Shown one piece after another: positions 14,598-22,335 of a stretch of 64,000 nucleotides of DNA. Source of the stretch: a virus (lineage: Duplodnaviria > Caudoviricetes); IMG/VR virus record IMGVR_UViG_3300030330_001955, positions 1 through 64,000 of that record, one strand, 5' to 3'. Every line of letters begins with the position of its first letter. The stretch's first letter is position 1. The notes below the pieces were generated by a model. It did not search any database. It had not been told where the DNA came from and was given only the letters and a program-made list of their open reading frames with translations. Both the position numbers and the translations under genes were made by a program.

Positions 14598-14912
14598 TTA
14601 CTTTCCTATATGTTTTACATCGCTTGGTGGAATGACTTGATATGCTCCTTTGTTATACGCTGGAGCAACAGTAAATTTCTTACTTGCTTCAATTTTCCAA
14701 CTATTGTCTACTTTAGTTCCCTGACCTGCACCTTTGCTGGTGGAGCTGACTGGAATCGAACCAGCGACCTTCGCATTGCAAGTGCGATGCTCTCCCTGCT
14801 GAGCTACAGCCCCTTTGGTCATTTTATTACTTTGCCTCTTTTTTCGCCAGAGGTGTGCATTTTTCTTTTTCCTGCCATTAGCAGAATAACGCATACTGCC
14901 TTGAATTATCAT
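14598..14912 (-). CDS. Conserved phage protein containing an in-frame tRNA
   Basis: AGGA RBS, promoter TTGACT(14973)-17-TATAAT(14945), C-terminal FTVAPAYNKGAYQVI..D.K.IG motif familiar from marine phage proteins. Confidence 0.7.
   Translation of the reverse strand: MIIQGSMRYSANGRKKKNAHLWRKKRQSNKMTKGAVAQQGEHRTCNAKVAGSIPVSSTSKGAGQGTKVDNSWKIEASKKFTVAPAYNKGAYQVIPPSDVKHIGK
14738..14813 (-). tRNA. tRNA-Ala(UGC)
   Basis: GGGGCTGTAGCTCAGCAGGGAGAGCATCGCACTTGCAATGCGAAGGTCGCTGGTTCGATTCCAGTCAGCTCCACCA: 76 nt, full cloverleaf, G3:U70, encoded CCA. Confidence 0.97.
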
Positions 14913-17397: not shown

Positions 17398-17640
17398 TTA
17401 TCCTCGTTTGAATACTGCGACAACCTTATTGTAGAATTTTTCTGCACTACCAACTATCTTTTCTAGTCCATTTACTAATAATTCATAACAGTTATATAGA
17501 AATACTGTTATTGGATTGGGGTATTCCCAACTGTCATACCTATTCAGTAGATAACTGAACAGAATTATCCATACAATTATTGAAAATAGATAATTAAAAC
17601 TGTAATATGGTAGTAATAATAAGTCATTTAAGAACTCCAT
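17398..17640 (-). CDS. Membrane protein
   Basis: Hydrophobic N-terminus, coupled to the MazG stop. Confidence 0.5.
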   Translation of the reverse strand: MEFLNDLLLLPYYSFNYLFSIIVWIILFSYLLNRYDSWEYPNPITVFLYNCYELLVNGLEKIVGSAEKFYNKVVAVFKRG

Positions 17641-18047
17641 TATATATCTCCTACCTCGCGGTTTTCGCTACGCACAACCTCAAAACCATTCGGGTATCGT
17701 TTTTCTAGCTTGCGTATATTTTCTGCCATTACTTCTTCTGGCGTATACCCTAGTGCCAGGCAGCCTTGACACCAATACCATAAAATATCTCCAAGTTCAC
17801 GCTTCATATGAAATCTCTCGTCCTCGTTTAGCTCCTTGCCTTGGAATATAATCTTCTTCATAATTTCTGTATACTCACCGCTTTCCGCCATCATACCGAT
17901 AGCAGAAGTCATCAATCTCGCAAGATTGATGTCGCGGTTTTCTTCTGTTAAACTATGCACTCTACCTATGAAGGCGATAGAGTGCTTCGATTCATCACTT
18001 GTAGTTGTATCTACGAATTTGCTGTAATCGTTAATGTTTATAGCCAT
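17640..18047 (-). CDS. MazG-like NTP pyrophosphohydrolase
   Basis: IG...ESGE..E..KK..FQGK, ELGDILWY, NIRKLEKRYP.GF. Confidence 0.88.
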   Translation of the reverse strand: MAININDYSKFVDTTTSDESKHSIAFIGRVHSLTEENRDINLARLMTSAIGMMAESGEYTEIMKKIIFQGKELNEDERFHMKRELGDILWYWCQGCLALGYTPEEVMAENIRKLEKRYPNGFEVVRSENREVGDI

Positions 18048-18254
18048 TTAGACACCTGCCTTTTTGTATATGTTGATACCCACGAAGATGTCTTCGCCAT
18101 TTACATTTATCTTTTGGTTGCCACTAGAAGTCGCAATCATGGTAGATTTACCACTACCACTCAAGCCAAAGTCTTTTGATGTGTCTACTACTATTGTCAT
18201 TAGACCATTATCATCAATCGAATACTTGATACCTTTACCTACTTCTACAAACAT
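18048..18254 (-). CDS. Conserved hypothetical protein
   Basis: G.S.SGKST.IATS.GN motif. Confidence 0.65.
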   Translation of the reverse strand: MFVEVGKGIKYSIDDNGLMTIVVDTSKDFGLSGSGKSTMIATSSGNQKINVNGEDIFVGINIYKKAGV

Positions 18255-18460
18255 TAGGCAACCTCCTTCTCGTAAGGATTATCTTTTGGACTTCCGTCGC
18301 CATCAAATCCTCGTTGGATAGCTGTGCCATCACAATATCCCACCTTTTTTCTTCGGTGTATTTCTTTTCTGGCTGCCTTGCCTTCTGGAGTTTGGTCGAA
18401 TCTCAACTCCTCGAGTTGCAAGTCAGTCAGTTTCATACTATCAAAATCTATCTGTTTCAT
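18254..18460 (-). CDS. Hypothetical protein
   Basis: Coupled in operon. Confidence 0.55.
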   Translation of the reverse strand: MKQIDFDSMKLTDLQLEELRFDQTPEGKAARKEIHRRKKVGYCDGTAIQRGFDGDGSPKDNPYEKEVA

Positions 18461-18615
18461 CTGCCTTGTCCTCTATATTTTTTATATGAGCGTCGCTTAC
18501 TTTTATTCATTGTTGAAGTAGCACACTTTGTGCGCCTACCTCTACCTCCAACACCTTGTGAGGACGCTTTTCTCACAGATACTTGGAGGGTTGTTGCTTT
18601 AGTCCATCTCGCCAT
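18457..18615 (-). CDS. Small basic protein ending KKYRGQGR
   Basis: S.MNK.KRR.YKKYRGQG motif common in marine phages. Confidence 0.65.
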   Translation of the reverse strand: MARWTKATTLQVSVRKASSQGVGGRGRRTKCATSTMNKSKRRSYKKYRGQGR

Positions 18616-18841
18616 CATCATCTCCAAATGCGTGATAGTCAGGTGGAAGCTTGACACCAGTCAGTTCACACAACCTGTGTAGCATATCTTCATACACTAC
18701 TGTAAGTTGCACAATTTCTTCATTGATTTGCTGTAAATCATCTAAGTTAGACTTAATCGCCTTCTCCAGTTCTTCCATACTCTCACGAAGTTTGTTCGCT
18801 TCTGTAAGAGTAGGGAACTGTATGATATTGTCTTTTGCCAT
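18599..18841 (-). CDS. Coiled-coil hypothetical protein
   Basis: MAKDNIIQFP start, coiled coil. Confidence 0.6.
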   Translation of the reverse strand: MAKDNIIQFPTLTEANKLRESMEELEKAIKSNLDDLQQINEEIVQLTVVYEDMLHRLCELTGVKLPPDYHAFGDDDGEMD

Positions 18842-18947
18842 TATCTGTTCCCCATATCGTGGGTTGCAGTAGCTATGTAGTAAATCCCTACTGTAAGACA
18901 CATACCGATTATTACACCAAATAAGAATATATTAAATAGTTCTAGCA

Positions 18948-19160
18948 CTATGCACTCTCCTTTGGTTTCCAAACCAACTTTACGCCCCTGCGGGTTAATT
19001 CATTTCTGCACTTCTGCACTATTTTTGGTTTCGCATTACTACTATTGATGTAATCAATCAACTCTTGCTTAGGAGTATTTTTGATAAAGTGCTTGGTAGT
19101 AATAACTTTCTTTGTGCCACGCACTAATCTTTTGTCATCTGATTTAAACTTTACTGGCAT
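18948..19160 (-). CDS. Conserved small basic protein
   Basis: KPKI.QKCRNELTRRG. Confidence 0.6.
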   Translation of the reverse strand: MPVKFKSDDKRLVRGTKKVITTKHFIKNTPKQELIDYINSSNAKPKIVQKCRNELTRRGVKLVWKPKESA

Positions 19161-19479
19161 CTTCTTCTCTCCTTAACTTATCTTCTATTTCAACTGACAG
19201 AACGAATTGCAACCTGTCTGCCAACTGTGGGTTATCATTTACTAAGACCTGCGCGAGAGTTGCAATCTGCACGCCGTCTTCACTAATTTTTTGTAGATTC
19301 TCTACTATATTCTTAATCGTTTTGCTACTCATAATTTCCTTTTGTTTCGCTATGATTTCTGTTCGCACATACTGTCCTGCTTTCCTCATGAGCCATGCGT
19401 TGTGTGTCCCTACACCCTGTAGTGCAAAGGCTTGCATACGCCAATCCATGATTTGTTTTTGCTCACTAGATAGTTTCAT
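19144..19479 (-). CDS. Hypothetical protein
   Basis: AGGAG RBS; promoter TTGACA(19551)-17-TATAAT(19523). Confidence 0.6.
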   Translation of the reverse strand: MKLSSEQKQIMDWRMQAFALQGVGTHNAWLMRKAGQYVRTEIIAKQKEIMSSKTIKNIVENLQKISEDGVQIATLAQVLVNDNPQLADRLQFVLSVEIEDKLRREEDASKV

Positions 19480-19600
19480 GCTTACTCCTTTAGAAATCTA
19501 CTATTATTTTATTTATGATATTATTATATCACGCGAAGGGTGGATTGTCAAGAACTATTTTAAGCTGGGCATAAAATTTTGATGTGAAGTTTTTAAGAAC

Positions 19601-20450
19601 AAAAAAATCCCCACGCTGAGTGGGGAACAAAAAACTCGAATGTTGTTTTGTAAAAGCGTGTCCTTCGGCATTGGTGGGCGGACTACAGAGCGACTGAGTC
19701 CATGACCACTCGGGTTCTTTTACGCGCTACCTCGAACCAACCCGATATTCACTAAACCTGTCTATTTGGAAGAGTCGCCGTTCTTATGGTAGTTCGACTA
19801 CTTCAAGCGTCGCAGGTTAGACACTAAGTGATATTCACGCTGTATCTACTCGTCAATCACGCTCTAATTTTCCACTTTTATACTGCTACTCCTATTAGAG
19901 AAGGAACTTACAGCACGGGGCGACAGTCGTCTTCTTCCTCCGTGAGCGACTTGTAAGTAGGTGTCGCTTATACACTACCATAGTATGCACACTATGGATT
20001 TCGGTCAAGAGCCAGTTGCCTGATTTACTGAGTTGGTATGCTACCGCTGAGATTGACCATTTGTTCGCACTTTGCTACCGAATCGGTTTGTTTTGATGTG
20101 CCTCAGTTTTATACTTGCCTTTCGCGACTGTTTACTTTTTCTTAACGGAGTGTTTGCTGTCGCCTTTCCACTCCAAAACTGTTCAATAAAGTGCGAGAGT
20201 TGACCTACTTTACTAAAGTGTTATACCCCGTTCTCTCGCGACTGGAATCCTACAATTACGCTTGGTCTTATCAACTGAAGTATATATCGTTGTGCCAATA
20301 ACCAGTCCACCACTTGTTGAGTCGGCTTAGTGCTGTTATGATACTGAAGTATTCTTCCAGACTTACTGCGACTCAGACTGAGACTTTGACCTCAAATAAG
20401 GAGAGAGCCTCGCTGTCTGTCGAAAATTTACTCTATTTCAATTTTCTATA
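19601..20450 (-). ncRNA. Candidate large (~850 nt) structured ncRNA
   Basis: Perfect promoter (20485-20457), intrinsic terminator TCCCCAC/GTGGGGA plus T7 (19626-19601), no ORF of 60 aa or more, many hairpins, nested 5'/3' long-range helices. Confidence 0.75.
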
Positions 20451-20533
20451 ATGTATATTATACTTGGTTTTTAACCATTTGTCAAGAACTTTTTTATGCT
20501 TTGCTACTAAAAGTTTGACTTGTTTTGAACTTG

Positions 20534-20555
20534 GTGGGGAAGCGAGTTCCCCACT
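20534..20555 (-). terminator. Hairpin terminator after the A2-like gene
   Basis: GTGGGGAA-GCGAG-TTCCCCAC. Confidence 0.6.
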
Positions 20556-20568
20556 CGTTTGTTCGGAA

Positions 20569-20895
20569 CTAGGAAGCGTTGACTTCTAGTTCAAGTGCCT
20601 CACAAAGTCTTTGTAGGTCTTGTTTGCCTGCTTTGACAAGTGTTGGCATTTCCACTCCAAAGTGTTCTACTATCGCACTCACAAATTGTGATTTGCTGAT
20701 TACTGGTTCGCCAGTTTTAGTAGTTCTTGGTTGTGCTTTGTAGATACCCTCTCTTGATAACTTAGCGATAATACTTCTTGTAGTTTTACCGAAAGTCTGT
20801 GCTAAGGCGTCTACTGTTTCCCTTGTAGGGTTTGCTTCGTATTGAGCAGTCATTTGCTCAACCATTTCATCTGTGTAATTTTTAGCTGCTGCCAT
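20569..20895 (-). CDS. T5 A2-like DNA-binding protein (optional 23-aa in-frame extension from 20964)
   Basis: NYTDEM...YEANPTRETVD.LA..FGK..RSIIAKLSREGIY; GGGAG RBS before 20895. Confidence 0.72.
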   Translation of the reverse strand: MAAAKNYTDEMVEQMTAQYEANPTRETVDALAQTFGKTTRSIIAKLSREGIYKAQPRTTKTGEPVISKSQFVSAIVEHFGVEMPTLVKAGKQDLQRLCEALELEVNAS

Positions 20896-20999
20896 GTTTG
20901 AACTCCCATTCATTAGTGAGTCTATCGACTCGATTATTATACTTTTTATTTCTTCCCATTTCATAATATAAATATTATACTATGGTTTTTGTTGGTTTG

Positions 21000-21185
21000 T
21001 CAAGATATATTTGAAGCTGCGCTTAAAATAACTAATATTGAAAAGCAACTTACATTGAGCGTGACCAGTCCAAACACGAAGCGTTCTTCTGCTGATAACT
21101 TACTCCATCTACGCCCCAGCGGGTGTGTCAATTTGAATCTCCACCATGCGGCGTCTACTTTATCTCTTATCATTTCCAAATTCAT
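21000..21185 (-). CDS. Small membrane protein (probably leaderless)
   Basis: ATG 6 nt after TATAAT (21197-21192); C-terminal TM. Confidence 0.55.
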   Translation of the reverse strand: MNLEMIRDKVDAAWWRFKLTHPLGRRWSKLSAEERFVFGLVTLNVSCFSILVILSAASNIS

Positions 21186-21229
21186 ATAAATATTATACTG
21201 TGGAATCTTATGCCAAGTCAAGATATTTC

Positions 21230-21850
21230 TTACGCTTGGCTTAAGATTTCTACAACTTTTGTGATTAGAGCCAATCTGCCATCTGCTTTGTCATTGTAGT
21301 CAATGGTGTGCCACTCGCCTAGTGTAGTCAATACTCGCTCTTTCAAAAGTGTCATCTGGTCGTATTTTGATAAAGCCAGTGCATCATTGGGTGAGAATTT
21401 CCAACTGGTTAGCGGGCTTGATTGTCTTTTCTCAATGCGATACTCTTGTTCTTCTTCGCTGATTGACAACCATAGCTTGATGAATTTTACATCTTGCTGT
21501 GCTTCCCAGTCCAATACTGACGCCATGAAGTCTTCATACTGTTCATCAGAACACCAGCCGTTTAGCTTTTGAACCATTGCTCTTGAATACCAACTTCTGT
21601 CGAATAATACCATTTGATTGTCAGATGGCAGTTTGTGTTGCCATGACTCTAGCCAGTTGTCCATATCCCATTTGCTCGGCATATTGCTGAACGATACAGA
21701 ATACTTGCTAGTTGGTAGATAGTGAGTGAACTCACGGATTGTGCCAGTCTTACCAGCAGTATCTCTACCCTCAAGCACTATCGCAACTTTACCGAAGTCT
21801 TGTGCGACTAGCTCGTTTAGTTTGATTTGTTGTGCTTGTAGTTTTGTCAT
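21230..21850 (-). CDS. ppk2: Polyphosphate kinase 2
   Basis: LEGRDTAGKTGTI Walker A, FDRSWYSR Walker B, IKLWLSIS.EEQ..R, WKFSPND; promoter TTGACC(21926)-17-TATAAT(21898). Confidence 0.92.
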   Translation of the reverse strand: MTKLQAQQIKLNELVAQDFGKVAIVLEGRDTAGKTGTIREFTHYLPTSKYSVSFSNMPSKWDMDNWLESWQHKLPSDNQMVLFDRSWYSRAMVQKLNGWCSDEQYEDFMASVLDWEAQQDVKFIKLWLSISEEEQEYRIEKRQSSPLTSWKFSPNDALALSKYDQMTLLKERVLTTLGEWHTIDYNDKADGRLALITKVVEILSQA

Positions 21851-22335
21851 GTCGTTCTCCTAATCATTTAGAAACTAATTTTTCTAAATATGGGTATATT
21901 ATATCACGCCTTTATGGTTCGGTCAATTACTTTTTAACGCGAGCATTAAAAAATTAACGCCGACAATTTCGGGGGGCGGGACGCGACCTTTGGCGGGTGT
22001 GTGGTAAATTGCTCCAAAAAACGCTAAAATCGTCTAAAAACTACTTAAAACTTCGCATAACCCCGCAAAAGCTCGCGCAAGTTTTTTCTTGACTCGGCAC
22101 TATTGGCCGTGTTATACTATACAGGGTGAGGAGGGAGGGATACCCGCGCGTACACAAAATTTAATCGTCATTTTACTACTTTGGCGCGGGTTCACGCGCC
22201 CCCGTTGCAAACCCTTTGTTTATCGGTGTTTCAGGCAGCTGTGCAGACTGACGAATGCAATCTTTTTTGAGACAATTTTAAAAAATCTCTTGACATGCCT
22301 TAGGTGGTATGATATAATCGGCGCGATTTTGCGGG

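Follow-up and report, generated by a model that had tools for sequence, protein, structure and literature searches.

The window considered here, 64,000 nucleotides (nt) of DNA from a tailed phage (Caudoviricetes), is the first 64 kb of the 102,910-bp IMG/VR virus record IMGVR_UViG_3300030330_001955, which CheckV rates as complete. Its large terminase shares ~50% amino-acid identity with those of Pectobacterium phage My1 and T5-like Vibrio phages, and the phage is therefore best regarded as a distant, uncultured relative of the T5 group. Between a regulator gene and a gene for a protein of 111 amino acids (aa) lies the interval 19583-20568 (986 nt), the longest of the window without an open reading frame (ORF) of 50 aa or more; the runner-up measures 384 nt. 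We argue that the minus strand from 20450 to ~19601 constitutes a gene in its own right, encoding a large, structured non-coding RNA, a reading to which we assign a probability of roughly 80%, and we are surer still that a discrete gene for a structured non-coding RNA lies here. The features are given below in the direction of transcription; L072, to which several lines refer, is a metagenome contig 93% identical to the window across the whole unit, and the only close full-length relative.

20533-20555, minus strand: hairpin between the regulator gene and the RNA promoter, bounding the unit upstream; lacks a U run on the minus strand.
20457-20485, minus strand: sigma-70 promoter of the RNA gene, 12/12 consensus (-35 box TTGACA at 20485-20480, 17-nt spacer, -10 box TATAAT at 20462-20457).
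19601-20450, minus strand: primary transcript of the RNA gene, ~850 nt from predicted start to terminator.
19666-20465, strand not given by the contigs: stretch covered by single contigs of 794-800 nt from three marine metatranscriptome runs.
20193-20239, minus strand: 5'-domain hairpin (20239-20233 with 20199-20193), one pair compensated in L072.
19945-19997, minus strand: two adjoining hairpins, with pairs changed on both sides in L072.
~19781-19916, minus strand: core domain of ~140 nt, from iterative nhmmer (model positions 565-705, ~80 loci).
19890-19905, minus strand: helix Pb (19905-19902 with 19893-19890), two pairs compensated in L072.
19894-19900, minus strand: 5' strand of helix P1' (7 bp with 19868-19862), lying inside Pb.
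19862-19868, minus strand: 3' strand of P1', directly preceding the 47-nt core motif.
19819-19865, minus strand: 47-nt core motif (model R1), defined by covariation; R1 score 61 bits.
19601-19626, minus strand: intrinsic terminator, a 7-bp G+C-rich stem (19626-19608) capped by a 5-nt loop and followed by a U run.
19523-19551, minus strand: next perfect promoter by consensus scan, for the downstream 111-aa gene; the downstream edge of the unit.

The boundaries of the unit are well marked. The original prediction, made by a model reading the letters of the sequence, had proposed a perfect minus-strand promoter at 20485-20457 and a dedicated terminator at 19626-19601, and both are recovered, the former by a consensus scan and the latter as a 7-bp stem followed by a T run. 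Transcription is predicted to start near 20450/20449. That prediction also placed an insulating terminator at 20534-20555; the hairpin is real, and the U run that a minus-strand terminator would need is absent. Related loci, numbered here with the prefix L, were collected with the upstream regulator gene as anchor (52 viral and 80 metagenome), and all are IMG/VR viral contigs or metagenome and Tara Oceans contigs, many of them marine. The promoter block is kept in every one of them, the position and type of the terminator are conserved, and the downstream promoter is conserved jointly with the terminator. The two perfect promoters of the window have a 22-nt block in common (19545-19566 and 20479-20500), comprising the -35 box and an A/T-rich stretch upstream of it; its presence in all relatives fits a stereotyped early promoter of the T5 type. 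Apart from this duplicated promoter block, the region holds no repeats or iterons. A perfect 11-nt inverted repeat (19618-19628 and 20546-20556, 917 nt apart) brackets the gene, since the RNA terminator and the hairpin that precedes the RNA promoter have one arm in common; the repeat could delimit an exchangeable cassette.

Nothing in this interval behaves as a protein gene. The claim that 19.6-20.45 kb holds no ORF of 60 aa or more holds good, the longest on either strand being 45 aa. Within the RNA, L072 differs from the window by 102 substitutions and 10 indels, and six of the ten indels are not multiples of three. None of the ORFs of 22-43 aa is preserved in L072, each being stopped, frameshifted or re-bounded, and no conserved small ORF runs across the 20 sequence clusters into which the locus falls; conserved short ORFs, which the original prediction had named among the observations that would refute it, are thus absent from both comparisons. 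A tblastx comparison with the 52 related loci finds similarity confined to the nucleotide-conserved promoter and terminator ends, in all frames. The only ORF matches between clusters are antisense pieces of 12-44 aa, in several frames, over conserved nucleotides. The RNA gene is, on strong indications, not protein-coding.

What is conserved instead is base pairing. Differences between the window and L072 concentrate in hairpins and are mostly compensatory. RNAalifold run on this pair predicts 206 base pairs, 15 of which retain pairing despite changes on both sides; because that structure was fitted to both sequences, we also ran a blind test, in which the window RNA was folded alone (238 pairs) and the resulting structure was then scored in L072. 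Here, 14 pairs prove to be changed on both sides yet paired, as against a mean of 1.39 and a maximum of 6 in 300 simulations that placed the same number and kind of substitutions at random, and only 24 pairs are broken where 38.4 +/- 4.7 would be expected. Five internal helices had been proposed from the window sequence by eye, and three of these gain compensatory support. The hairpin 20239-20233/20199-20193, compensated at one pair in L072, recurs in locus L002 with its stem rewritten yet complementary and its loop kept. In L072, both partners are replaced in four pairs of helix 19997-19991/19984-19978 (alignment columns 486-490/495-499), and helix 19968-19963/19950-19945 has a compensatory change (columns 513/534). 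As for the other two, L072 keeps the stem of helix 20174-20169/20152-20147 and rewrites its loop, and it leaves the TCGGGTT/AACCCGA helix unchanged.

The proposed closure of the RNA by its own ends fared less well. Helix 20420-20410/19693-19685 had been advanced as an end-closing helix, with a second (20376-20370/19700-19694) nested within it, the two supposedly closing a domain of ~730 nt. In L072 two bases of the 5' strand of the former are altered and the partner strand is unchanged, so that two pairs are broken, and both single- and two-sequence folds pair the segments of these nested helices locally. When a long-range closing helix conserved among the window, L072, L002 and L008 was sought, the partners came out inconsistent. 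A conserved 5' block was also considered as a closing partner for 19679-19671 and was rejected, the pairing being either not conserved or not compensated.

Strong covariation lies in the core, the ~140 nt that alone among the parts of the RNA are conserved across distant relatives. RNAalifold on MAFFT alignments recovers few helices in these relatives because such alignments are not structure-aware, and the core helices were therefore scored by hand or by cross-locus controls. The 47-nt motif contains two nested helices, P2 (19851-19849 with 19828-19826) and P3 (19846-19843 with 19833-19830), together with a pseudoknot, PK, in which 19861-19859 pairs with 19840-19838, a segment lying inside the P3 loop. 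The upstream strand of PK is the three bases just before an invariant unpaired heptamer. This pseudoknot covaries: at pair 14-38, 31 sequences have C-G, 6 have G-C and 5 have A-U. Over the 42 sequences and the 10 pairs of P2, P3 and PK, 93.9% of cells are paired, as opposed to 82.4% in shuffles, and 39 cells are changed on both sides, as opposed to 9.4; none of 500 shuffles reaches so high a value, and controls in which the pairing is slid out of register all collapse.

A second pseudoknot lies on the 5' side of the 47-nt motif. The partner strand of P1' is found ~27-32 nt upstream across relatives, and P1' averages 5.63 bp when both strands come from one locus and 3.89 bp when they are drawn from different loci, with five or more base pairs in 95% and 22% of cases, respectively. 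Fifteen different 5' strands occur, each fitting its own partner, and here, too, the window and L072 differ on both strands in a compensated manner. An equivalent of Pb covaries in the wider family (one pair is U-A in 8, C-G in 5, A-U in 5 and G-C in 2). Since the 5' strand of P1' lies inside Pb, the two helices together form a pseudoknot of their own. The homolog comparison for which the original prediction had called gives covarying core helices (P2, P3 and PK) in 42 sequences, judged against shuffles.

Two observations bear on which strand folds. Pairs of G with U are frequent among the covarying pairs of the core, and the 5-mer AGTAG, found at helix ends, occurs 127 times on the sense strand where 50.6 would be expected and 18 times antisense; both favor the minus strand as the one that folds.

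Evidence that the RNA is made comes from RNA libraries, in which 15 runs contain some or all of the stretch, and from which contigs were placed on window positions 18000-22000. Three runs of one study each assemble a single contig at 100% identity, spanning 19666/19672-20465. Their k-mer depths, a quantity that measures expression poorly, are 754, 237 and 539, as compared with 25-110 for contigs of the upstream genes and 5-21 for those of the downstream gene; no RNA contig is listed for 18804-19205. Contaminating DNA could hardly account for depth so uneven within one phage genome, and the pattern suggests that the RNA is abundant in ocean metatranscriptomes, far above the transcripts of neighbouring genes. 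In a second study, one run gives contigs only within 19669-20251, as fragments of 190-230 nt. The interval 19536-19665 falls outside the listed RNA contigs, a gap that in itself proves nothing. A discrete minus-strand RNA of ~850 nt had been predicted to appear in metatranscriptomes; a discrete, deep contig of ~800 nt is what is found, its strand not being given by the assembly. A full-text literature search found no paper on this RNA family or on RNAX, the stable RNA of phage T5 discussed below, and a candidate metatranscriptome paper is silent on non-coding RNA.

The contigs of both studies end at 19666-19672, ~45-70 nt short of the terminator. At this site (window 19666-19673) a hairpin loop carries the motif AAUGCCGA or a near variant of it, and a similar motif stands ~75-95 nt before the terminators of L020, L024, L034 and L035. 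These coincidences are a weak hint that the motif is a 3' processing site, in which case the RNA would measure ~780 nt rather than ~850 nt.

How widely is the gene distributed? All 47 loci for which both boundaries are present place 951-1746 nt between the regulator and the conserved block of terminator plus next promoter, and, save for one gene inserted in L013, none of these has a sense ORF longer than 96 aa. Their interiors fall into the 20 clusters mentioned above, with patchy similarity. Taken together, about 130 loci of uncultured marine phages of the T5 type hold an ORF-poor unit of 0.8-1.2 kb at this place, and the majority of them have the ~140-nt core. The R1 covariance model finds exactly one copy in the phage genome; of 76 further viral contigs drawn by a loose pattern, 22 contain the core by this model. 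For relatives that bear the core, the predicted RNA length is mostly ~820-1220 nt, one RNA being of 586 nt, and the core lies 330-590 nt away from the start. The core is missing both from cultured phages and from the bacterial loci that were scored. Against 50,697 phage records the whole region is without a match to cultured phages (blastn, 'distant') and the core gives only chance-level matches, at E values of 1 or more; the upstream regulator protein likewise has no cultured-phage match, and the downstream 111-aa protein, used as a query, recovers no related viral loci. Bacterial genomes (596 Gb) contain more than 120 matches to the degenerate core pattern, seven Prochlorococcus single-cell genomes among them, which is about the number we estimate for chance. 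The 100 of these loci that were scored with R1 all stay at or below 25 bits, giving no host or prophage signal for the core. An 18-mer of the 5' domain had drawn in four extra viral loci (L054-L057), which were set aside as chance matches, there being nothing else similar in them.

The periphery of the RNA varies in a patchwork manner. Locus L002 has the first ~300 nt of the window RNA, and L068 has a middle block and the core. Short boxes recur in altered order among relatives; the 13-nt box ACCAUAAGAACGG (window 19785-19797), for instance, stands before the core in L068 and after it in L099 and L111, which suggests that RNA modules have been shuffled. To judge from these sequences, the RNA appears to be assembled from exchangeable domains, with its periphery swapped mosaically between phages.

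Several of the loci that most resemble the window in their flanks have a different occupant. An ORF-poor unit unlike that of the window, with the same promoter and terminator, is found at L005:2395-3449, L007:3943-5101 and L009:2746-3696 and in L073, L089 and L095, and this unit may represent a second RNA type. In distant relatives, a conserved element with T-arm-like sequence and a long closing stem occupies the space between the regulator and the RNA promoter (L020:433-700, L025:1551-1720 and L011:350-545, equivalent to window 20486-20568), where the window has its hairpin. Neither ARAGORN nor Rfam calls this element a tRNA. In L011 and L020 a true tRNA-Glu(UUC) follows it directly, still upstream of the RNA promoter.

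The combination of an independent transcription unit, a strand-specific conserved structure, a core with two pseudoknots and a deep contig in RNA libraries carries the case for an RNA gene, and it bears out what the original prediction had proposed, a large folded non-coding RNA transcribed from a promoter of its own and ended by a terminator of its own, now with compensatory changes, a covarying core, the lack of any conserved ORF and an ~800-nt contig behind it. Several considerations weigh against that reading and keep our estimate where it is. The folding energy of the RNA is no more favorable than that of shuffled sequence (z = -1.27 for the minus strand and -0.42 for the plus), values so unexceptional that stability alone is uninformative. 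Support for helices beyond the core comes from two or three sequences, and neither a global architecture nor an end-closing helix is established. The RNA contigs give neither strand nor true ends, their depth carries the limitation already noted, and the runs were chosen for holding this very stretch. The relatives nearest in their flanks (L002, L005, L007, L009, L073, L089 and L095) have an ORF-poor unit of 0.86-1.1 kb in the same place and lack the R1 core; the family is therefore a mosaic and may comprise several RNA types at one locus. Finally, any function for the RNA is as yet inferred.

With these reservations, membership and novelty can be stated with some precision. The window has every feature by which we delimit the family through R1 and the extended core, namely P2, P3 and PK, P1' crossing Pb, a promoter and terminator of its own, and an ORF-poor unit of 0.8-1.2 kb following the D5-like regulator gene, and the evidence strongly indicates that the RNA belongs to a previously uncatalogued family of uncultured marine T5-like phages. 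The kind of molecule, a large phage RNA, is already known; what is new is the family. Cmscan with Rfam 15 over 19400-20700 finds no family at E values up to 10, the best scores (13-22 bits, several of them on the terminator hairpin) lying far below the gathering scores, and the only match in the window that reaches its gathering score is a tRNA-Ala at 14741-14813. Among relatives, 19 give only tRNAs at the gathering score and 10 give only tRNAs at E values up to 1. The RNA thus shows no membership in OLE, HEARO, RNase P, the group I and II introns, tmRNA, 6S, the ribozymes, IMES and other families of that collection, and neither the window nor the relatives scanned contain a hammerhead.

The alternative that survives best holds that the RNA is a diverged ortholog of T5 RNAX, one ancient T5-like family having drifted beyond recognition. 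RNAX (rnaX, T5s08; NC_005859 40848-41566) is a 719-nt misc_RNA annotated as a 'stable RNA with unknown functions', located between promoter P16-17 and tRNA-Arg. The resemblances are of several sorts: both are large RNAs of T5-type phages, as the terminase of the window phage attests for its part, of similar size (719 nt and ~800-850 nt) and gene organisation, each with its own strong promoter in a tRNA-associated part of the early region, and both are without an Rfam family save for one piece of RNAX. Both also favor GTAG on the sense strand, with 10 sense and 2 antisense copies in the window RNA and 6 and 2 in RNAX. The exceptional piece lies in the 5' part of rnaX (L350:3933-4004, minus strand), where the Rfam tRNA model scores 38 bits against a gathering score of 29, and is annotated in the record merely as part of the misc_RNA; the tRNA-like element and tRNA that stand beside the RNA in the window's distant relatives recall it. 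The window RNA itself, by contrast, has no match to the tRNA model, and whereas RNAX abuts tRNA-Arg, it ends at a terminator of its own, among neighbouring genes unlike those of T5. Nhmmer searches with rnaX against the window and all loci of the family, and with the family model against the T5 locus, return nothing at E values up to 10, and the best score of the R1 core at the T5 locus, with filters off, is 3 bits. Orthology with RNAX is in our judgment unlikely.

A second alternative is that the transcript is a precursor, cut into several smaller stable RNAs of a tRNA-like or other small kind. The modular, mosaic anatomy with motifs shuffled between relatives would suit such a precursor, as would the place of the locus in a tRNA-associated region of T5-like phages, the 190-230 nt fragments of the second study, and, as a weak hint of 3' processing, the ending of the contigs from two studies at 19666-19672, before the terminator. 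Against this stand the three runs that assemble the entire 794-800 nt as one contig, the joining of distant core segments by P1' and Pb, and the failure to detect a tRNA or known small RNA inside the unit, and we consider a precursor improbable.

It could also be supposed that the DNA rather than the RNA is the working element, transcription serving to activate, for example, an R-loop replication origin, or the region being a promoter or regulatory spacer. A strong promoter and an ORF-free stretch in the early region are what such an element would show. Yet helices that covary with G-U pairs on one strand specifically, a dedicated terminator after them and a discrete deep contig in RNA libraries are features of an RNA product, and the region is free of the iterons or repeats of an origin; this alternative has very little to recommend it.

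Scarcely any more room is left for a divergent member of GOLLD or ROOL. GOLLD exceeds 800 nt, occurs in phages and prophages, often beside tRNAs and with marine members, has a conserved 3' and a variable 5' part with multiple pseudoknots, and forms a homo-oligomeric nanocage, a 14-mer (PMC12286853). ROOL measures ~600 nt, is found in phages and prophages near tRNA islands, and has pseudoknots and no known protein partner (PMC12286853). As descriptions, these fit the window family: its RNA is large, phage-borne, pseudoknotted and close to tRNA islands like both, and shares with GOLLD a marine setting and a variable 5' part joined to a conserved one. But the conserved part is only ~140 nt, the core differs from that of ROOL, the habitat is that of marine T5-like phages, and the covariance models for GOLLD (its conserved 3' region) and ROOL match neither the window (E values up to 10) nor the two sets of 19 and 10 relatives searched at the thresholds given above. 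The original prediction had left the choice between a divergent GOLLD or ROOL and a new class, and had asked that Rfam be searched; because no Rfam family is found, the new class fits and the divergent member does not. Weakest of all, with hardly any probability left to it, is the view that the stretch is protein-coding sequence in decay or a group of tiny protein genes, a view for which several ORFs of 25-45 aa could be cited, since no ORF is preserved in L072, the interior has no similarity at the protein level, and the matches across clusters (12-44 aa, antisense, in several frames) reflect nucleotide conservation.

Returning to the reading we prefer, that of a free-standing gene for a large structured RNA, one may ask what such an RNA would do. 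Host RNA polymerase would transcribe the gene from its consensus promoter once phage DNA enters the cell, and the RNA would accumulate as a stable particle acting in trans. The double-pseudoknot core may be the functional site, docking a partner that could be a protein, a tRNA-related RNA, the ribosome or a small ligand, while the variable helices, linked by recurrent G-U-A-G junctions, would form a scaffold. Of the possible roles, we rank first, and tentatively, a scaffold or self-assembling particle like GOLLD and ROOL. Second comes a decoy or sponge directed at a host factor or a defence, a doubtful proposal that we entertain because mosaic turnover of a locus is typical of conflict genes. 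A ribozyme or ligand sensor seems a poor bet. A bolder possibility, about which we are likewise doubtful, is that the RNA represents a new, 'ornate' class of large phage RNA, whose core is an unseen fold with an activity of its own (self-assembly, catalysis, or capture of a host factor or tRNA), at a locus that is an arms-race hotspot for swapping large RNAs.

To our knowledge, large, intricately folded RNAs of bacteria or phages without known function are rare, and each such RNA studied so far (RNase P, OLE, GOLLD, ROOL) has given unusual biochemistry. The present family adds another large folded RNA, from abundant uncultured phages of the ocean, with a covarying core compact enough (~50-140 nt) to be studied directly by structural and biochemical methods. 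It also suggests that a large stable RNA close to the tRNA genes is a general feature of phages of the T5 type, and if that is so, the question can be addressed in parallel in the model phage T5 and its marine relatives. For a structured RNA, moreover, it is unusual to evolve through mosaic replacement of its domains at a single locus.

The genes around the unit complete the picture. The upstream gene (20569-20964, minus strand), which served as anchor, resembles the D5-like transcription regulators of phages. Farther out, the region is flanked by a gene for PPK2 (polyphosphate kinase 2; 21230-21850, minus strand) and one for a MazG-like pyrophosphatase (17640-18047, minus strand), which represent nucleotide-metabolism cargo in the same early block.

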